Below, in pieces: positions 1,611 through 18,166 of a stretch of 18,166 bases of DNA. Numbering within the stretch: position 1 is the stretch's first letter; each line of letters opens with the position of its first letter. Source of the stretch: Eledone cirrhosa (Eukaryota); the NCBI GenBank assembly GCA_964016885.1, contig CAXHJY010001493.1:1-18166 (forward strand), in the 5' to 3' direction. The position numbers and the translations under genes are program-made. A model generated the notes under the pieces. The model was given only the letters and a program-made list of their open reading frames with translations. It was not told where the DNA came from and did not search any database.

Positions 1611-1800
1611 TTACTAGTTTCAGGTCAATAGACTACGACCTTGCTGGGGCCCGACCTCAATAAGGGATTTAATTGATCATATCAACTCCGATATTTATAT
1701 ATTTCAACACAAGTACTTAACATTATCCGATCGATTTTCTTTTCGAACCGGTTAAGTTACAAGACATCAACACAAATATAGATACATACGTAAACACAGA
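1611..1800 (-). mobile_element. 3' part of an octopus-type tRNA/CORE SINE whose other part lies at 4403-4492
   Basis: TTACTAGTTTCAGGTCAATAGACTACGACCTTGCTGGGG...GAACCGGTTAAGTTAC...ACAC matches my recollection of the abundant octopus SINE with an internal CA/TACA microsatellite. Confidence 0.7.
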
Positions 1801-1866
1801 TACATACATACAATACATACATACATACATACATACATACATACATACATACATACATACATACAT

Positions 1867-2475
1867 GGTGGTGGCTGCCAACTCGTTTTCGAGAGTACGG
1901 CCACTACTTTTATATCCATGTAGGAGAACCCCTACCGATGCGCTGAACGAGTGTGACTTTTTAGTCCAGCCAGTGACTTGAAAACTCTGGTACAAACACT
2001 ACACCTGTGACAACTATTGACATAGTGCTGGGCCCATGGTACCTTGTGACGACAAGTGCAGAGAGGTCTCCAGATATAAAGCAATGCCTGTGCCGTGAAG
2101 CTTTTATAGTGAGTAAAGCACTGCACAAAGCCAGTCCCACTCTCTTAACCAAGATGATATTTACCAAAAAGAAGAACAAGTCAACATCATTGGATACCAT
2201 CAGGGTTGCAGGTGTTATATCAGAGTTTTCCTTCTCCTAGAATTCTGCCTTGACAAAGGCTATGGGGTCATCTCTCCCGGTGATTTTGGATGGTCATTGA
2301 CTCTCAAGAGCTCCTTTGCCCTTTGACAGGTTTTGTTTTTAGTCCTGCAGGATGTCCAAAGTCACCCTCCTCACCAAGAAACCTTGGTAGGGTTGCCAGT
2401 TTAGTCGCCAACGACCCGACCATGAGACAGGTTGTACTGGGATACATGTTACCAGTAGCACTAACTGATGACCTG
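1867..2475 (-). mobile_element. Short non-autonomous RTE-derived retroelement (~610 bp), copy A1, longest copy
   Basis: Minus strand: RTE-type 5'UTR motif CTAGGAGAAGGAAAACTCTG, a C-terminal C2H2 zinc-finger relic CSVCTRVFKSLAGLKSHTRSAH, 3' end TCGAAAACGAGTTGGCAGCCACC and a (TATG)n tail; no EN/RT coding in between; further copies at 3556-3723 and 3993-4313. Confidence 0.8.
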
Positions 2476-2558
2476 ACATAACATACATACATACATACAT
2501 ACATACATACATACATACATACATACATACATACATACATACATACATACATACATAC
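2476..2558. repeat. (TACA)n microsatellite; also at ~1800-1866, 2787-2875, 3533-3555, 3724-3791, 3951-3992, 4314-4406
   Basis: Seen directly; these tracts separate each nested insertion. Confidence 0.97.
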
Positions 2559-2786
2559 GACAGGTTATATACCAACCCGCTTGGACCAAAGTATAAACTG
2601 AACTTGGATTTGTGGACAAAGAGCGCAGCTCCCTAATTCATAGACTACAAATGGCTGCGGTAGCTGGCACCTTCAAAATTTGCAAAACACTCTTGCGATT
2701 CAAAGGATGACAATTTCTTTTCTTTTACAACCTTGCCACCAGGAAGGTGACCGTTCAAAAATGTACTCGAAATTAAGAGAAAGAGA
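2559..2786 (+). mobile_element. 5'-truncated R4/Dong-clade non-LTR retrotransposon 3' end, copy B1
   Basis: Translates with one frameshift to TGYIPTRLDQSI-ELGFVDKERSSLIHRLQMAAVAGTFKICKTLLRFKG*, an R4-clade C-terminus; 3'UTR shared with 3445-3532 and 8320-8421; runs into (TACA)n. Confidence 0.8.
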
Positions 2787-2875
2787 TACATACATATATA
2801 CATACATACATACATACATACATACATACATACATACATACATACATACATAACATACATACATACATACATACA

Positions 2876-3532
2876 GTTGACAATAAATGTAAGTTATGCA
2901 AAACAAATAACAAAGATGTTAGCCACATTATTGCCAAGTATGAAAGAATTTCTTCTCGTTACAACCCATCTATGAGGCACGATTTGATAGCTAGAACGAT
3001 CTGGAATGCATTACGGAGAGAGACGCAAATAAAATCAAATAGGGAGGAATATGTTGAGACTGGTGGCTTAAAGGAATAATGGTGGAACCTAAAAGTAAAA
3101 AACTGCCTCCAGATTAAAGCACAACCGCCTGATATTGTTGTTTGGGACCACACATTAAAAATATGCTCTGCTTTAAAAGTCAGCTGTCCACTTGATGTCA
3201 ATGTGGTAAGAAAAATACAAAGGGAGGATATCTATGGACCATTGATGAGGAGTTTGAAAATCCAGAATCCAAGATACCCGTTATTATTGAGGCCACAGGT
3301 TATATACCAACCCGCCTGGACCAAAACATAAGTGAAATTGGATTTAGTGGCGATATAACGTCGCTCCTTAAGTCATAAGCTACAAATGGCCACGATATCT
3401 GGAACCTTCAAGATGTGTAAAATATTCTTACTCTTCAAAGGATGAATGCTTACACCTGAGACGACACAATTTCCTTTCTTTACATCGGGAAGGTGAACCG
3501 GTCAAAAATTAACTCATAATAAATAGAGAGAA
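2876..3532 (+). mobile_element. 5'-truncated R4/Dong-clade retrotransposon (zinc knuckle + restriction-like endonuclease + 3'UTR), copy B2
   Basis: VDNKCKLCKTNNKDVSHII (CCHC relic), MRHDLIARTIWN (RHD), PDIVVWD...VSCPLDVNV (PD-(D/E)xK RLE region), then the same C-terminus as B1; contains stops and frameshifts. Confidence 0.85.
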
Positions 3533-3555
3533 TATACATACATACATACATACAT

Positions 3556-3722
3556 GGTGGCTGCCAACTCGTTTTCGAGTACGGCCACTACTTTATATCC
3601 ATGTGTAGGAGAACCCATACCGATGCGCTGAACGAGTGTGACTTTTTAGTCTAGCCAGCGACTTGAAAACTCTGGTACAAACACTACACTTGTGACAATT
3701 ATTGACACATAATGCTGGGCCC

Positions 3723-3723
<1 letters not shown>
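3556..3723 (-). mobile_element. 5'-truncated copy A2 of the RTE-derived element
   Basis: Near-identical to 1867-2035 including the zinc-finger relic CSVCTRVFKSLARLKSHTRSAH; flanked by TACA repeats. Confidence 0.85.
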
Positions 3724-3753
<30 letters not shown>

Positions 3754-3791
3754 CATACATACATACATACATACATACATACATACATACA

Positions 3792-3840
3792 ATGATGATG
3801 GCTGCCCCCTCGTTATCGAGTATGGCCATTGCACAAGGAG
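3792..3840 (-). mobile_element. Very short 3' end of a related RTE-type subfamily
   Basis: GATGATGGCTGCCCCCTCGTTATCGAGTATGGCCA parallels GGTGGCTGCCAACTCGTTTTCGAGTACGGCCA of element A; abuts (TACA)n. Confidence 0.6.
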
Positions 3841-3950
3841 AAAAAAAAAATAAATAAAATAAAATAAAATAAAATAAAATAAAAATAAAATAAAATAAAA
3901 TAAAATATAATAAAAATATTTTTTTTTAAATTAATAAATAAATAAAAAAA
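3841..3950. repeat. (AAAAT)n / A-rich low-complexity tract
   Basis: Seen directly. Confidence 0.9.
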
Positions 3951-3992
3951 ATACATACATACATACATACAAACATACATACATACATACAT

Positions 3993-4313
3993 GGTGGCTG
4001 CCAACTCGTTTTCGAGTACGGCCACTACTTTATATCCATGTAGGAGAACCCCTACCGAAGCGCTGAACGAGTGTGACTTTTTAGTCCAGCCAACAACTTG
4101 AAAACTCTGGTACAAACACTACACTTGCGACAATTATTGACACATAGTGCTGGGCCCATGGTACCATGTGACGACAAGTGCAGAGAGATCTCCAGATACA
4201 AAGCAATGCCTGTGCCGTAAAGCTTTTATAGTGAGCAAAGGCACTGCACAAAGCCAGTCCCACTCTCTTAACCAAGATGATATTTACCAAAAAGAAGAAC
4301 AAGTCAACATCAT
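3993..4313 (-). mobile_element. 5'-truncated copy A3 of the RTE-derived element
   Basis: Colinear with 1870-2190; ends at CAAGTCAACATCAT and runs into TACA repeats. Confidence 0.85.
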
Positions 4314-4353
4314 ACATGACATACATACATACATACATACATACATACATACA

Positions 4354-4384
<31 letters not shown>

Positions 4385-4402
4385 CATACATACATACATA
4401 CA

Positions 4403-4492
4403 TACGACGAACCTCTGCAGTTTCTGTCTACCAGATTTCATTCACAGGGAATTGGTCAACCCATATGCATAACTTTCGTGTCTTTCCCAAGA
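4403..4492 (-). mobile_element. Other part of the SINE split at ~1800
   Basis: TACGACGAACCTCTGCAGTTTCTGTCTACCAGATTTCATTCACAGGGAATTGGTCAACCC...CCCAAG matches the segment that follows the internal microsatellite in the recalled SINE consensus (TACGACGGGCTTCTTTCAGTTTCCGTCTACCAAATCCACTCACAAGGC...). Confidence 0.7.
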
Positions 4493-5732
4493 TCATTTGT
4501 GATTAAAGAAAAAATTGAAAGAAATAGGTATAGGTAAACTATGTTATGCAGTCTGTTGAATTAGAAACATGTTTTCGTAACTAAATAATTTTTTTTTTTT
4601 AGGTACAAGTTTTTATTTTTTTGTGTGTTACATATTATTTGATTACTATTAAATCGGTCACACACACATAGTACACCAGGTCGGAACACAGGGACCAAAC
4701 TCCCACTGCCACCGCCTCCTTCTCTCCCACTCTCCTCATCTCTCATTATTATGAGCAAATAATAAATAAAATTATTGGAAAAAAAGTAATTATTAATTGA
4801 AAATATTAAAATATTCCATTGAACATCATGTAAATTTCATTGAAAATTAGTCACCTTTAATTTAAATGCCTAAAAATCTTAAAATTATAAGACATAAATA
4901 AGTCAAGTGAAACGAAGAGAACCCGGAATCGAATTGGGTCGCCGAAACAGCTCATCTAGGAGCTTACCTCCGTTTACTCAACTGTTATATTCCTTGTCGC
5001 GTAGTAACGGCCGACAACAGGTTGAGAGTAATAACAGCAGCAGCCACCAGTGTGTGTGTGTTCTACGTGCATTCTTGTCTGTATATGTGAGTATATGGTA
5101 TGGCAGACGACAACTCTATCAAGTGAGAGAGAGACAGAGAGAGAAAAAGATAAAGTAAAGTGAGAGGAAAATGACTGAAAGACAGAATTAAATATAAAAT
5201 AAATTCATGACGGAAGGTGATAACACTATGTATAGTTGTTATCTTGATCGGTTAAACAAAACTATAATCATCGTCACTGATATTTCAATATATTTGTTTG
5301 ACAAAAATATGACGAGACGGGTTTATTGATATGTGTGTGTGTTGGGGGGGGGGGGGGGGGTATAGACATGACTTCGAAAGGAAGCAAAACCAAGACTACG
5401 CTCCTTACTAAACAACGAGTGGAAAATGAAATAGAAACGATGTTTGGAGATAATAAACAAACTCTTGAATACAAATTAATTTACCCTCAAACTGGTGTTA
5501 ACGACTGTTAGTGAGAAACTCTGGCATCAGAAGAAAGTAACTGAAATAAAGGTTTACAAGAAATTCAGTAGAAACCAAAATGCAGTGTGATTAGAAGAAA
5601 TGTGAAGAAACTATTGTCCCTACAGTGCACCGAAATCACACTGTGATACCCTTGAGAATGTGATAGGAAAACTTCAGAATAAGAAAGCTCCAGGATCAGA
5701 CTTCATTGATGGTTACTGGTAAAAGAAATAAT

Positions 5733-5914
5733 TGTTTCTACTTTTGGCACAAGGCCAGCAATTAACCAGTACATTATTGGTACTTTATTTTATCGACCCC
5801 GTAAGGATGACAGGCAAAGTTAACCTCGACGGGATTTGAACTCAGACCGTAAAGGGACGTAACTATGCTGGAAAGCATGGTGTCCGACCCTCTACCGATA
5901 CTGCCAATTCACCG
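5733..5914 (-). mobile_element. tRNA-derived SINE (Meta/MESC-core-like)
   Basis: Reverse complement of the 17763-17974 copy, with A-box TGGCAGTATCGG, B-box GAGTTCAAATCCC and core TCATCCTTACGGGGTCGATAAAATAAAGTACC. Confidence 0.88.
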
Positions 5915-5920
5915 AAATAA

Positions 5921-6088
5921 TGGTTTCTAATTGAGGCACACGCCTACAATTTTGAGGGAGGGGAAAGTCGATTAAATCGACCCCAGTGCGTTACTGGTAC
6001 TTTATTTCATCGACCCCGTAAGGATGAAAGACAAAGCTAACCTCGGCAAGATTTGAACTCAGATTGTAAAGGGACGTAACCCTATGCC
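5921..6088 (-). mobile_element. Second tandem copy of the same SINE, lacking the A-box end
   Basis: Same core and B-box (GAGTTCAAATCTTGCCGAGG on minus strand); 3' part GGGGTCGATTTAATCGACTTTCCCCTCCC. Confidence 0.85.
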
Positions 6089-7144
6089 ATATTGTTCTTT
6101 TATAAGGGAGTATCTTATCAACCTCTACCAGCTTGCTCTCAATAGAAATAGAAATATATAATGCGTATTGGCGTCGGTAGAGACAAAACTGATACGAAAA
6201 TCCCCCTAAAAAAGGGAAGAAACAAACTCCCTTGGCAAAACATTACCGACTGATTGTATGTCAGCCCGTCTGAACCTATTCCTCCAGGATCATTGTGACA
6301 ATGACAATATCATCACAGATGAGCAAGCAGCTGGAAAGAAAGGGGTTTAGTGGAAGAGCTGACCAACTGATAATTAACAAATTGACGACACAGGAGGAAC
6401 TAGATTAGAGTGGTTGGATTATAAGAAAGTATTTGTTTCTGTTCTCCACTCTCTGATGCTAGAAAAGTCCCTGATACCATAATCAGGGCCGTAGATAACC
6501 ATTGTTAAATACAGGGAAGGGCTGTATTGTCACTGACAGAATACAATATCGCAGGGGTATATTTCAAGTAGACATTCTCTCGGTGATGTTGGTTATATTA
6601 TCAATAAACCCCTTGTTCTTTATGCTGAGACAATATGAAGGATACGTAATTGGTTCACAGGAGGCCAAGAAACACTAACATAACAACTTCTTTGCTAAGA
6701 ATATAAATGGTATGAAGAAAAACATTGACCTGGTTTCTACATTCTCGAAAGTTATAGGAATGGAGTTTGGCCAGAATAAATGTTCCTACAGGATTATAAA
6801 GCGAGGAAAATCTACAAGCTGATCTAGCAACATCTCTATCAATAGCCGAATTGTTTCGCCGGTATCTGACGTGGAATGCTAGATAATTAGGGATTGATGA
6901 AAATATGTCTTATGATGGAATTTCTAACAAGGAATAACTATGGAATATAACACACGGATAAGGAAAATATGGTCCTCGGATCGCTCTACATACAATAAAC
7001 CAGTGCTCCACAATGTATTTGTTGTACCTGTGCTAACACCAGCATTTGGACTACTTGACTGGACGCTAGATGAGATATGAGCCGAAAATTTCTAACCGAC
7101 ACCGGAAATTTCCACATCAGCAGTGACATAGACTACCTTTAACT

Positions 7145-8421
7145 AAAACATGGCCCAGACTCCTAACAGGTTATTGCCTGAAGAATTGCACCTTCTACCG
7201 GCGAGATTTCATACGGTTGTATAAAGAAAGTATCAAGGGTACACAAAAACTGTCCCAATTGTAATCAACTGCCACTACTCACCTCATACCCCAAAATAAC
7301 CAAACCACTCTTGCTAAAAAAAATACTTGTCAGAACATCATGTACAAATTATACACTGGTTGCCCCAATTTGTTCTCGCAGGATTATTGTGCCACCAACA
7401 ACATTATAATACCTGAGCAAGCTGAGGAAAAGGAGGAGGTGTGAGACTGTATAGAGCAGCTACTAATTAACAAAATGATCCCGAAAAAATAGCAAAGAAT
7501 CGCAAGAACTTGACTGTAGTGTGACAGGACTACTAGAAGGCTTTTGATAGTATACCACAGGGGTGAATTATCAAGGTTTTACAGTTAACCAAAGTCCCAC
7601 AACCACTGGTAGATGTTGTTGGTACACCATTTTGTTCCTTTGGGGTGATAAGGAGCAAATTGAGTCTGGTAGTATTCACTACCAAAAAGACATCTTTCAG
7701 TATGATAGCTTGTCTGGATCCAGAAGTATCTCCCATCTTTTCTTTGTCGATGACATGAAATTGTATGAGCCAAATCAACCACTTAAAAACAATTGGACTT
7801 CATTACCCAATTTTCTGCACTCATTGGAATGAAATTTGGACAGTCCAAATGAGCATTTTTTACAATAAAACGTGGAAAATGTGTGCCCTCTTCTGAAATA
7901 AAAGCTAATGGCTTGACGATACAACTTGTACAGTCAGGTGACAACTACAGGTATTTTGGAGAGGATGAAAATGTCAGGTATGATGGCTTGGCTATATTTG
8001 CCACACAAAGAGCGTAGTCCGGGCCTAAAATCAATATTGACATCATACGAGACCTGGATAATAACACTGAAGCAGCATCTTCAATAGAAGAAAAAGGTCA
8101 ACAGCCATCTTGCACACATATTGTTAGAATAGGCACTGATCTAGATGAGAGACGTGAAATAAAAGCTGACACAAATCTCTCTTACAGAAACATTGGAAGA
8201 CTCTACTCAATGATCGAGCAAAATAAAAGGACCAATTCACTGAGAAGTTTGTGCATGAGTACTTAATACGAGAAACATGGACTACAGAGGGGATAAAACA
8301 TTCTTAAGATTCAAAGGATGAACGCTTTCACTTGAGACGACGATAATTTCCTTTCTTTACAACCTTGCCACCAGGAAGGCGGCCGGTCAAAAATGAATTC
8401 AAATTTCAGAGAAAGAGAGAA
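7145..8421 (+). pseudogene. Second decayed, internally deleted R4/Dong-clade element ending in the same 3'UTR as B1/B2
   Basis: CQNIMYKLYTGC, NNIIIPEQA, IEQLLINKMI, DY*KAFDSIP, IFQYDSLS, ISHLFFVDDMKLY (RT YxDD box), IGMKFGQSK, NYRYFGEDENVRYDG; 8295-8421 matches 2684-2786 (KTFLRFKG* + UTR), followed by ACATACAT. Confidence 0.82.
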
Positions 8422-8546
8422 CATACATAATCGCCGAAACCTATCTATGTTTGTATTCAGATGCAGTCATACAAGCCTACACATGATTTTCCTGCATTCT
8501 GCTGCACGGCAACCAATTTGTTTTATTACCCACCTTCCAGCCTATT

Positions 8547-8591
8547 TACATACATACATACATACATACACACATACATACATACATACAT

Positions 8592-8624
<33 letters not shown>

Positions 8625-8671
8625 TACATACATACATACATACATACATACATACATACATACATACATAC
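8547..8671. repeat. (TACA)n/(CA)n microsatellite
   Basis: Seen directly. Confidence 0.95.
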
Positions 8672-8734
8672 AGTCGTGCTTTACAGCTAAAAACTTCAAT
8701 AGATTTTAAGAGGAGCAAGGCGTAGGTACGTAGA

Positions 8735-9737: not shown

Positions 9738-9884
9738 TTTGAGTATATGTTGGTTGTATACCAATACCTCAGTATGCAGATCGGAGCACTCGACGAAGTG
9801 CGCAGTTTGGTTTGGTTACTCCGGAGTAATGTAAAATAAAATAAAATAAATAAGTCAAATGTTTAAAATTTAGCTTCGTTTATT

Positions 9885-9939
9885 ACTGCTATATATATCT
9901 CGGTGACAGCCATCTTTTCCTGTGACCTCTTCAGGCAGT
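9885..9939 (-). ncRNA. Minimal type-I hammerhead ribozyme motif (GAGA core variant), left arm
   Basis: Minus strand ACUGC-CUGAAGA-GGUCACAGGAAAAGAUGGCUGUCACC-GAGA-UAUAUA-UA-GCAGU. Confidence 0.7.
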
Positions 9940-10102
9940 CCGAATTAGTGTGGTATAGACACGTACACATGTTGTTGAGGTGTATAACTTTGTCAATACT
10001 CTGATATGCCCAGTTCCTGGTTGGGTTGTTATTTCACTGAGGAACTGGGTATATCAGAGTATTGACAAAGTTATACACCTCAAGTATACCACACTAATTC
10101 GG

Positions 10103-10157
10103 ACTGCCTGAAGAGGTCACAGCCAAAGATGGCTGTCACCGAGATATATATAGCAGT
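10103..10157 (+). ncRNA. Minimal type-I hammerhead ribozyme motif (GAGA core variant), right arm
   Basis: Stem I ACUGC/GCAGU; core CUGAAGA; stem II GGU-C-ACAGCCA/UGGCUGU-C-ACC; GAGA instead of GAAA; palindromic stem III AUAUAUAU; predicted cleavage after A10152; AATAAA at 10158. Confidence 0.75.
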
Positions 10158-10208
10158 AATAAACGAAGCTAAATTTTAAACATTTGACTTATTTATTTTA
10201 TTTTATTT

Positions 10209-10243
<35 letters not shown>

Positions 10244-10794: not shown

Positions 10795-11140
10795 TACGTC
10801 GAAGAAACAACGCCACGCGTTCGGTCGGCCCCCTGTATCATGAAAAGAAAATCTTTGTCGGGGAAATTATTGAATTTTTCTGAATGTAAAGGTTTATTAG
10901 GAATTTTCAATGTTTATTTTAGGTTTTGCCGTCTGAAGAGCTATCTAAACTGATAGTCCTCAGTGAAATATGTATAACGGAGTTTTAAATAAACCTGAAC
11001 TACTTGAATATGGCCTCAGATTTGTTATTAATATATAATGCTCCGTCTTGTACCATTTATACAGGTTGTTGACCGCTTCTTTTTGTCTGCTTCACAACCG
11101 ACAGACTATAATGTGTCATCTGTTAAACCCATATTCTAAA
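10795..11140 (+). mobile_element. Penelope-like pseudo-LTR-type unit between TA tracts
   Basis: Hammerhead motif at 10929-10980, AATAAA at 10988; microsatellite flanks. Confidence 0.6.
10929..10980 (+). ncRNA. Minimal hammerhead motif with damaged stem II
   Basis: Stem I CCGU/ACGG; CUGAAGA; CUAUC/GAUAG hairpin with unpaired UCCUCAGU before GAAA; stem III AUA-UG-UAU then A. Confidence 0.65.
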
Positions 11141-11144
11141 TAAA

Positions 11145-11649
<505 letters not shown>

Positions 11650-11660
<11 letters not shown>

Positions 11661-11773
11661 GTAAACGGAATAGAAAATGCTGACAAATAGTTCACAGTTG
11701 AAAAATGGTTTAATTAGGAATTAAACTGTGAACAATTTGTCAGCATTTTCTATTCCGTTTACCAATATATATA
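11650..11773. repeat. Inverted repeat, ~50-bp arms, 24-nt spacer, embedded in (TA)n
   Basis: TTGGTAAACGGAATAGAAAATGCTGACAAATAGTTCACAGTT / AACTGTGAACAATTTGTCAGCATTTTCTATTCCGTTTACCAA with one mismatch. Confidence 0.92.
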
Positions 11774-12166: not shown

Positions 12167-14013
<1,847 letters not shown>

Positions 14014-14940
14014 AAGCACTGGACAAAGGAGATACCCTTGACAAACTCCGACTGTTGGCCTGAAGAATTCTCCAATGTTGTTATTTAGGAGAACTGCACT
14101 GTTTTAGTTGTCGTACAGTGCTTTAATTAATTGAATGAGGTTGATGTCAAAGTTGTAATCCTTCATGACCTTACACAAACCCTCATGGCAAACATGGTCA
14201 AAGGCTTTTTTAAAGTCAATGAAGTTATGGTAGAGGCCAATTGGTGCTGCAAATGTTTCTCAGTGAACTATAAGTTAAGTTTAAGGCCTCTTTTAAGGCT
14301 GACCATTGGTAGTATCCTGTTGTCAGCTCGGTTGGAGCAGCGTCTCCGGTGGCTAAACAGACCTATGCGTCAGTGAACAGTTAAATATCTGCTCTGTTGG
14401 ACTTCTTTGGGGCCTGAATCCTGCCTGTTCTTCTGACAGGGTTTATGCTGCCTTTCCCTTAAGTCTGTTTAAAAGAACTCTTAGCAGCACTTTGCTGGGG
14501 TGGGGAACTAACTAGGCTGATTGTTCTGTACTTCTGGTAAAGTCTTAAGTTTCATTTTTTGGAGGAATCGGTATCATTAGTGATTGGGTCCCCTCCTTTG
14601 ACCACTTCTTTGTTTCCCATATCTTCTGACAGTTAACTGTTTTGACCCTCCATGTTTTAGGGGCTCTGATGGAATGTTATCAACTCCTGTGGATTTACTA
14701 TCTTTAAGCATGTGCCCCGCCTCTCCGACTTCCTCCTGGAGAATTGGATTATCCTCAATTTCTTTGTTCTTATTGGTGGAATTGTCCAGGATGTTGATGT
14801 CAGGTCTGAGTTTGTGGTTATAAAGCTCTTCAGCAAACTCAGACCATCTTTTGATGACATGGGCCTCGTCTGTGAGGAGCAAGCCAGTTTTGTCCTCAAT
14901 GGAGACTTGTATGTTTTGGTGCATAAAATACATTGGAATT
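14014..14940 (-). pseudogene. Decayed RTE-clade LINE reverse transcriptase fragment
   Basis: IEDKTGLLLTDEAHVIKRWSEFAEELYN, PILQEEV, KSTGVDNIPSE, FIDFKKAFDHV, LIKALYDN, FFRPTVGVCQGYLLCPVL. Confidence 0.9.
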
Positions 14941-14943
14941 CAC

Positions 14944-15360
14944 TCATCCCATCATTGGGTTCTGATTCAGATCTGGACCACGATTATGTATTTTTGAATG
15001 CCTTGTAAGTCCTGACTTATTCGAAAATTCTCTGCTAAATGTACCACATGTCAAACTGATTTCAAGGAATTGATCGTATTCGACCTGTAGTATTTCTATC
15101 TGCTTATATAGGTGACTTATAAAGCCAGCTTTTGACATGTATATTCAACCACATACATTGGATACAAACTTAGGTGCTGAGGTCTCCATGTGTTGGCCTT
15201 TCTTAGCTGCATATTTAATGCTAGCCCATTCCGAAACAGGTTCCATTAGATATAGCGGTGCGCCACTTGTTTCTATCTAATGACATGACCTCCCAGCGAG
15301 ATGTTAAGGAATTTCACACAATCTTTGAAAAGTAATTTTGGTTTGTGTTGTGGTCTAAAA
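14944..15360 (-). pseudogene. RTE-clade LINE C-terminal fragment with C2H2-like zinc finger relic
   Basis: RPQHKPKLLFKDCVK near 15320-15357 and TCGTFSREFSNKSGLTRHSKIH. Confidence 0.65.
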
Positions 15361-15385
15361 TGGCCCAAATGGATTGCTTCTCATT

Positions 15386-15770
15386 TATGCTGAACTAATG
15401 AGGAATCTGAAGATACTCCACCATAACTACACATTTAGATTTGTACCTGTGTTCATTGGGTCTCGGTACAAATCTTGAGAAGCTGGGCTTCACAGAACCA
15501 GAAAGAATACGGCTAGTTAGGAAGTTGCAAGTATAGTCCAGTAATGGAACTGTAAAAATGCGTAAAACATTTCAGAAATTCAGAATGTAATAACTGCATA
15601 TGCCCGTGTACACATATAACTCAAAACATACAGATCGACGCATGCCATAATATCCATACCTGCACACACACATACAGGCATACATACGTATTTACGTAGT
15701 TGATGTTTTATAAATTGAGTAGAGATACTTGTTGGTCACGACTGGGTATCATATAACCGGAATCGTGATG
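15386..15770 (+). mobile_element. 3' fragment of another R4-clade family; stop at 15588-15590, UTR end approximate
   Basis: YAELMRNLKILHHNYTFRFVPVFIG...NLEKLGFTEPERIRLVRKLQV*SSNGTVKMRKTFQKFRM*, homologous to the B1/B2 C-terminus. Confidence 0.75.
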
Positions 15771-17762: not shown

Positions 17763-17974
17763 GGTGGATTGGCAGTATCGGTAGAGGGTCGGGCGCCATG
17801 CTTTATAGCAAAGAGTTACGGCCCTTTATGATCTGAGTTCACATCCCGCCGAGGTTAACTTCGCCTTTCATCCTTACGGTGTCGATAAATAAAGTACCAA
17901 TCACGCACTGGGGTCGATTTAATCGACTTTCCCCTCCCCCAAAATTGCTGGCCTTGTGCCTATATAAGAAACCA
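17763..17974 (+). mobile_element. Full-length tRNA-derived SINE (Meta/MESC-core-like)
   Basis: A-box TGGCAGTATCGG (17770), B-box GAGTTCACATCCC (17835), core GCCTTTCATCCTTACGGTGTCGATAAATAAAGTACC, tail GGCCTTGTGCCTATATAAGAAACC. Confidence 0.9.
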
Positions 17975-18027
17975 ATATTTTGCTTGGTGAGAATCAAAAC
18001 AACACCTATTGAGCTATTGTGAGAATA

Positions 18028-18166
18028 ATGGATTAGCAGAAGCGTTAGAGCGTCGGATAAAATGTGTTCCTTTATGTTCTGAGTTCACATCCCGCCTAGG
18101 TCAACTTTCCCTTTCATCCTTTCGGGGTCAACAAAATAAAATGCCAGCCATGTTCTGGAGTCGATG
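18028..18166 (+). mobile_element. Another copy of the same SINE, cut by the window end
   Basis: TAGCAGAAGCGTTAG...GAGTTCACATCCCGCC...CTTTCATCCTTTCGGGGTC. Confidence 0.85.

Follow-up and report, generated by a model that had tools for sequence, protein, structure and literature searches.

Nested R4/Dong-type and RTE-derived insertions in one (TACA)n repeat of Eledone cirrhosa suggest a common preference for this landing site

Six retroelement inserts of two unrelated kinds were found one after the other within a single four-letter repeat, (TACA)n, in a 2.9-kb stretch of Eledone cirrhosa DNA. The stretch lies at positions 1611–4492 of the window, by which we mean the whole of the DNA analyzed (18,166 nt; assembly GCA_964016885.1, contig CAXHJY010001493.1, forward strand). 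The window is AT-rich animal DNA without N and is rich in microsatellites and retroelement debris. The inserts of the nest comprise (i) family A on the minus strand, with three copies (A1, A2, and A3) of a short derivative of an RTE long interspersed element (LINE); (ii) a stub of a related family on the same strand; and (iii) family B on the plus strand, with two 3′ ends (B1 and B2) of R4/Dong-type LINEs. The nest is real and better than chance, and it consists of known element kinds in a partly new combination. Although only a single locus, it suggests that both kinds prefer the TACA repeat as landing site. The features of the nest, including the flanking host segments that we take to be a short interspersed element (SINE), are as follows.

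1611–1799, minus: left host segment, presumably the 3′ portion of an ancient CORE-type SINE
1778–1866, plus: TACA run 1, degenerate at its left edge, 3′ side of A1
1867–2476, minus: A1, the longest A copy (610 nt), read as a non-coding bipartite RTE derivative from motif, finger, and hairpin
2476–2558, plus: TACA run 2, bordered by the A1 and B1 5′ ends
2560–2785, plus: B1, 5′-truncated R4/Dong-type 3′ end (last ~45 codons and 3′ untranslated region, UTR), from profile match
2786–2875, plus: TACA run 3, 3′ side of B1 and 5′ side of B2
2876–3532, plus: B2, R4/Dong-type copy truncated at its 5′ end, in which zinc knuckle and restriction-like endonuclease (RLE) have decayed, from relatives and profile
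3534–3555, plus: TACA run 4, common to the 3′ ends of B2 and A2
3556–3722, minus: A2, 5′-truncated A copy (167 nt), from self-comparison and zf-C2H2
3724–3791, plus: TACA run 5, 5′ side of A2 and 3′ side of the stub
3792–3840, minus: stub, 3′ end with (CAT)3 terminus, from an RTE-type family akin to A yet distinct from it, identified by its match to A2
3841–3950, no strand: A-rich stretch, (AAAAT)n then (TAAA)n, from sequence
3951–3992, plus: TACA run 6, 3′ side of A3
3993–4311, minus: A3, 5′-truncated A copy (319 nt), from self-comparison
4307–4405, plus: TACA run 7, 5′ side of A3
4403–4492, minus: right host segment, presumably the headless body of the same SINE, CORE-like 10-mer at 4482–4491

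Order, strands, common 3′ ends, and staggered 5′ ends of the inserts all agreed with a preliminary description made from the sequence alone, which omitted the 110-nt A-rich stretch at 3841–3950. Its statement that TACA lies at nearly every junction was confirmed as well: the repeat adjoins the 5′ side of five of the six inserts and the 3′ side of all six. Tandem or segmental duplication of one insert was ruled out, since the copies differ in their 5′ endpoint and similarity stops at the element ends. Eight long TACA arrays are present in the window; seven of these lie within 1778–4405 and the eighth at 8547–8672. Perfect runs of at least three units read TACA on the plus strand in 14 of 14 cases across the whole window (none on the minus strand). 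In total length the repeat (532 nt) stands beside (TA)n (946 nt), (GA/TC)n (264 nt), and (TG/CA)n (226 nt).

The case for targeting is carried by the 5′ flanks. Variably truncated 5′ ends sit at TACA in five of six inserts, and none of the six splits the body of another element; the element bodies of the nest amount to about 2 kb and the repeat to about 0.5 kb. Run 2 lies between two 5′ ends, so it is the tail of neither A1 nor B1. Because of this run and of the five inserts with 5′ TACA, tails alone are insufficient, which supports the earlier proposal that two unrelated LINE systems, one R4/Dong-type and one RTE-derived, repeatedly entered one (TACA)n tract on opposite strands. All three A copies have TACA on both sides and meet the repeat in the same register. 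When the window was compared with itself by BLAST, A or B 3′-end sequence was found in the nest and at 8294–8429 only, and no such end lay beside its (TA)n, (GA/TC)n, or (TG/CA)n repeats. The Dong 3′ end outside the nest also closes with two TACA units (8421–8428).

Under a sequential random-insertion model applied to the five 5′ TACA hits and counting the nest only, P was at most 0.012 at present-day run lengths (stub and A-rich stretch omitted) and 0.002 if the runs grew; over the whole window it was 2.3 × 10−8. These are rough values that overstate the case as the locus was picked post hoc for looking odd. Run 2 has two marks: a surplus A shortly after it begins and a closing GAC. The first is seen again towards the end of run 3 and the second where run 7 ends, so that their order is kept. 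This is suggestive of a B1 target duplication enclosing B2, A2, the stub, and A3, a reading that is weak because only one base of the GAC mark is not already accounted for by B.

Translation of B2 gave the C-terminal part of an open reading frame (ORF) of a retrotransposon of the kind without long terminal repeats. A word-index protein search found nothing among 45 candidates, but an exhaustive search succeeded, with 191 relatives at E ≤ 0.001 (best identity 50%). The Dong profile matched B2 (E = 3.2 × 10−43) and B1 (2588–2704, E = 2.4 × 10−6), and B2 aligned to the C-terminal CCHC/endonuclease region of full-length relatives (E = 10−31 to 10−44). These relatives have single ORFs of 1085–1162 amino acids with RVT_1. 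Among ten that were checked, nine have a C-terminal CCHC knuckle (the tenth protein is C-terminally incomplete), eight a PD..E motif, and none an N-terminal zinc finger, unlike R2 or NeSL; the APE domain (endonuclease/exonuclease/phosphatase, Pfam) was found in none of three full-length relatives scanned. Layout was thus tested on proteins 35–50% identical to B, the B copies themselves lacking the reverse transcriptase (RT) and the N-terminal part. When solved structures were compared with a profile of 14 B relatives, R2 proteins were best (E = 4 × 10−49) with LINE-1 behind, while a single-sequence search of PDB gave a chance match only. No Pfam match to a Myb/SANT-like N-terminal domain was obtained in the relatives; a conserved N-terminal block is visible in their alignment.

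Judged by its sequence, B represents the 3′ portion of a LINE of R4/Dong type (RT, CCHC knuckle, and RLE), the layout of its relatives being that described for R4/Dong (PMC7998251). The only relative with a name came from Argonauta hians; the other matches were unnamed or "hypothetical protein", with no named Dong among them. This name, the octopus-like SINE families, and Mollusca as the most frequent phylum in two of four protein-atlas rows point to a likely octopod source. B1 is 80% identical to B2, and the two are separate insertions of different subfamilies or ages because their Jukes–Cantor distance is 0.22 (150 aligned nt, common 3′ region). In B2, substitutions have removed the final knuckle Cys and the catalytic Glu that follows PD. 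Both nest copies are flanked by (TACA)n and not (TAA)n, which argues against a TAA-type Dong, not against membership of the R4/Dong clade. Scanning bacterial and archaeal genomes with the Dong alignment returned two distant loci (23–25% identity), one of which was checked and has no terminal microsatellites; they have no bearing on the question of targeting.

Outside the nest, the Dong profile matched at 5555–7080, 7154–8189, and 15383–15587, all on the plus strand. The first two matches belong to two older, decayed Dong-type bodies placed head to tail (5555–7139 and 7154–8428, plus strand). One of these, 5555–7139, is interrupted by a tandem pair of SINEs from another family (~5726–6091); the other has internal deletions, a B-like 3′ end, and two TACA units. 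Between this 3′ end and the TACA run at 8547–8672, which has the same strand as the runs of the nest, lie 117 nt (8430–8546) with no match elsewhere in the window. At 14900–15690, an RTE-like 3′ piece with zinc fingers (minus) meets a Dong 3′ piece (plus) head to head at ~15380, in the arrangement of A1 and B1 with no TACA between them.

The three A copies have the same 3′ end and different 5′ stops (610, 167, and 319 nt for A1, A2, and A3), and they differ pairwise by Jukes–Cantor distances of 0.038–0.044. Being only ~4% apart, they would be late arrivals in the nest. At 2220–2241, A1 is identical in 22 of 22 nt to a conserved domain of RTE 5′ UTRs and Ceph-SINEs printed in the supplement of PMC5786205. 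This motif lies 236–257 nt from the 5′ end of A1, inside the position range printed for RTE LINEs. In the same source, the domain is printed for OegopSINE and Sepioth-SINEs and aligned to many RTE 5′ UTRs, and it is also present in Ceph-SINEs, Ingi-3_AC, and R4-1_ADi.

A coding look is limited to the last ~35 codons of A, whose translation gives a C2H2 finger (in A1 a remnant near 1930–2005; in A2 a zf-C2H2 match in Pfam with E = 3.3 × 10−5, slightly short of the cut-off). RTE ORFs can end in a finger of this type. The finger is followed by a stop, a UTR of ~60 nt with a hairpin, and then the repeat. Hairpin z-scores were −2.6 to −3.2; for A1 (−3.2), one of 200 shuffles was equally stable. No endonuclease is encoded by A. 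A1 and A3 are colinear across 316 nt, including non-coding sequence upstream of the finger. As A3 spans the junction of non-coding sequence and finger in the way A1 does, the short form itself moved and the structure was inherited. Several A copies (A1 and A3) hence have an internal deletion in common, as expected of a bipartite RTE element. Rather than as a truncated LINE, family A is best read, from 5′ UTR motif followed by C-terminal finger and hairpin, as a 610-nt non-coding, bipartite, non-autonomous RTE derivative of the kind described in PMC5786205, of which A1 may be close to full length.

Searches with the 3′ end of A gave no match to a named RTE: two hairpin motifs had no hits in the PMC5786205 supplement, and matches in the protein atlas were generic zinc fingers. 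A hand-made descriptor of the hepatitis delta virus ribozyme, run on the first 200 nt of A1 with no shuffle control, gave 37 loose matches, none with convincing inner pairing.

The stub is identical to A2 in 26 of 30 nt and has the inner hairpin of A type, with a fold that is not significant (z = −0.95). It meets the repeat in a register differing from that of A1–A3. The adjoining A-rich stretch is possibly a seventh insert, a decayed poly(A). In A1–A3 a short (CCA/CAC) terminus precedes the repeat, as does (CAT)3 in the stub; therefore, the TATG next to these copies may be target rather than their own tail. TATG had previously been taken for the tail of A; in the three A copies and the stub, tail and target are inseparable.

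Several observations weigh against a preference for TACA or against other parts of the earlier description. The 5′ flank of the stub is the A-rich DNA at 3841–3950, with no TACA. Neither of two older Dong copies outside the nest has 5′ TACA (no two-unit run in 4403–6986 or 15159–15678), and the Dong 3′ ends near 8420 and 15670 have two TACA units only. No recognized A or B copy adjoins the 126-nt TACA run at 8547–8672. Target duplications of unique sequence are unreadable inside a repeat. Dong-profile matches outside the nest are all on the plus strand and two pieces at 13960–15380, probably RTE-like by their motifs, both on the minus strand, with no TACA. It was not established that the repeat sets orientation: LINE pieces beyond the nest lie on matching strands where TACA is absent, and some other factor may be decisive. 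No computation supported the reading of 1611–1799 and 4403–4492 as one colinear SINE. From the literature, the Dong target is (TAA)n in insects, molluscs, and cnidarians (PMC7998251, PMC3812793), thus also in molluscs, and RTE insertion is described as not sequence-specific (PMC2887409).

With moderate confidence, we favor a (TACA)n run that grew while taking up one target-primed insertion after another, of Dong through its RLE and of A through an RTE protein and pairing of the RNA end. An old SINE copy would have had an internal AC/AT-rich tract that became pure (TACA)n, and target-primed reverse transcription would then have struck this run on five or six occasions. To judge from their clade, the RLE of R4/Dong-type LINEs would nick the TATG strand, leading to entry on the plus strand. 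The short RTE derivative would be moved in trans by a putative RTE LINE partner and primed from the TACA strand, leading to entry on the minus strand. Its preference would most likely arise from pairing of the RNA 3′ end (of …CCAU or CAU type) with the nicked TACA strand, in addition to a loose bias of the endonuclease towards AT-rich repeats, and not from strict sequence specificity of the RTE endonuclease. Each insertion would split and partly duplicate the run, slippage would lengthen the pieces, and with the growing amount of target the locus would draw further insertions. Two mechanistic claims made earlier go further than the data. Recognition of the repeat by an RTE endonuclease was not established, since A has no endonuclease and tail-to-target pairing gives the same picture; nor was regeneration of the target by the tail of each insertion, for which splitting, target duplication, and slippage are equally sufficient.

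It appears unlikely that the APE endonuclease of the RTE partner is itself specific for (TACA)n, like those of Waldo, Kibi, and Koshi, and cuts the strand opposite to that cut by Dong. TACA on both sides in the same register in three of three A copies, none of them in the commoner (TA)n, would fit such an enzyme, and APE-type Waldo elements target ACAY repeats (PMC3812793). However, A lacks an endonuclease and the partner RTE was not found; the stub, a relative of A, differs in register and is without 5′ TACA; identical junctions are also predicted by tail pairing; and the known specific APE elements belong to the Tx1 and R1 clades (PMC4640811). Still less likely is repair in a fragile repeat, in which breaks or nicks by the Dong endonuclease would be healed by copying RNA or DNA able to pair with TACA/TATG, homology setting the orientation. 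Such repair would give both families a fixed orientation without two specificities, and it would account for untidy 5′ joins with extra bases and for the A-rich insert. The precise common 3′ ends with variable 5′ truncation are nevertheless the usual pattern of retrotransposition, and copying of DNA should at times bring in foreign flanks, of which none were seen except the A-rich stretch.

A low probability, ranking below that of repair, is given to a passive pile-up, that is, broad landing and a rare tolerated hotspot, with strands reflecting a bias of the region, for instance from selection within a transcription unit. LINE and SINE debris fills the window, Dong on plus and RTE on minus are seen outside the nest without TACA, and an explanation of this type has been proposed near CA repeats for Drosophila Waldo-A and -B (PMC3812793). 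Left unexplained are five 5′ ends in the repeat while ~2 kb of nest element bodies were never hit, and copies of another SINE family occur in the window on both strands. That separate loci were joined via TACA runs during assembly is very improbable. All junctions do lie in low-complexity repeat, but the window has no N and a 519-nt (AT)n array was resolved; a false join would still need 5′ TACA in the reads, so targeting would survive it; and the two host segments are presumably continuous with each other.

The two host segments presumably resemble successive regions of an octopus OR-type CORE-SINE, an assignment that computation did not confirm. At its very end (4482–4491, minus strand), the right segment agrees in 10 nt with the 11-nt CORE motif given in PMC5786205 (chance expectation 0.02 per window). 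By nhmmer, no second copy of the presumed SINE 1611–1799/4403–4492 was found in the window. No significant homologue of the left segment was found there either (best score equalled by 18 of 300 shuffles). A tRNA head with A and B boxes is likewise absent from the window, consistent with a 5′-truncated SINE copy. Rfam gave 39 matches at E ≤ 1 over the whole window, all under gathering scores and mostly on microsatellites; a search for protein-database ORFs mis-predicted on the host SINE found none; and OR1/OR2 sequence was absent from the MetaSINE supplement files searched. Membership of the left segment in the other SINE family of the window was considered and rejected, as the alignments were not significant (18, 103, and 158 of 300 shuffles scored equally).

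That other, younger SINE family has a motif with no matches in bacterial and archaeal genomes. A second short repeat family has at least five copies on both strands (1059–1429, 5726–6091, and 17763–18165), and its copy at 1059–1429 is split by ~170 nt of other sequence. At 9829–10213, a near-perfect foldback with 129-nt arms (98% complementary) contains a further inverted pair at ~9975–10085; it adjoins (TA)n runs and looks like a miniature inverted-repeat transposable element or a palindromic element. A short inverted repeat with ~40-nt arms (11657–11765) directly follows the 519-nt (AT)n array at 11140–11658 and has a weak Rfam hairpin match.

Extended to the whole genome, an RTE lineage from a clade held to be non-specific and a Dong moved from (TAA)n to (TACA)n would share one tetranucleotide from opposite strands; insertions would add target, the internal tract of an abundant SINE would seed new sites, and self-growing stacks would help to explain long microsatellites. 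We regard this extension as possible but doubtful. If the preference holds genome-wide, it would offer a natural side-by-side test of endonuclease versus RNA-tail pairing as the source of repeat-targeting by LINEs, with an RLE system and an APE-dependent system on opposite strands of the same repeat and with a short non-coding form, A, that eases tail swaps. A new target would be added to the Dong list, RTE would join the clades with target preference, and cephalopod genomes would gain a mechanism for their repeat hotspots and long microsatellites. Should it fail genome-wide, the nest is an ordinary nested hotspot.

Microsatellite-targeting LINEs and convergence of APE and RLE systems on one site are already published. 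R4/Dong elements insert in ribosomal DNA or microsatellites (PMC7998251), and APE-type targets include ACAY for Waldo, AC for Mino, TC for Kibi, and TTC for Koshi (PMC3812793). For RTE, 3′ repeats influence site choice or priming, and tail-to-target pairing has been published (PMC6007223). Keno (APE) and Utopia (RLE) converge on one target, the U2 small nuclear RNA genes (PMC4640811). In Octopus vulgaris, Dong-R4 occurs in abundance and has been active recently (PMC13282606), and the same holds for both RTE and Dong-R4 in octopus (PMC13282606, PMC8967140, PMC9115989), the available parts of these papers being silent on targets. For another octopus RTE, the called duplications displayed from a MELT table of 211 data rows are TA-rich, and four rows contain TACA (PMC9115989). 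Dong or RTE on (TACA)n was not found in searches of an open-license library; Repbase and subscription papers, including Kojima and Fujiwara 2004, may hold it. Possible novelties are a Dong that uses TACA in place of TAA and an RTE derivative that comes back to a single repeat.

The nest can be set against five known systems. With R4/Dong (Dong, DongAg, DongBg, and octopus Dong-R4), B has in common single-ORF relatives with RT, CCHC, and RLE and no N-terminal finger, a microsatellite at both ends, and 5′ truncation. It differs in its repeat, (TACA)n versus the published (TAA)n, and kinship is by layout, named Dong being absent from the comparison. Like the bipartite RTE elements (RTESINE1/2, WALLSI3, RTE-N2_Lch, and Bov-A; PMC5786205), A has an RTE 5′ UTR domain directly before an RTE-type 3′ end with the coding region gone, but it keeps ~35 codons of a C-terminal C2H2 finger, and three of three copies lie in one microsatellite, which is not reported for this group in the available parts of PMC5786205. 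The host copy resembles the octopus OR1/OR2 elements, which are CORE-SINEs (Ohshima and Okada 1994, cited in PMC4824008 and PMC4758252), in the CORE-like 10-mer at the head-ward end of its right segment; unlike them, it is headless, heavily decayed, and split by 2.6 kb. With Waldo, Mino, Kibi, and Koshi, A would have in common an APE-type system in a simple repeat, and ACAY covers TACA (PMC3812793); those elements belong to the R1 or Tx1 clade, whereas A is RTE-derived and non-coding, with a putative specificity. Finally, Keno and Utopia also provide APE and RLE systems on the same target in parallel (PMC4640811). There, the target is one site in a conserved gene, whereas in the nest it is a microsatellite that would grow with use and is entered on opposite strands.

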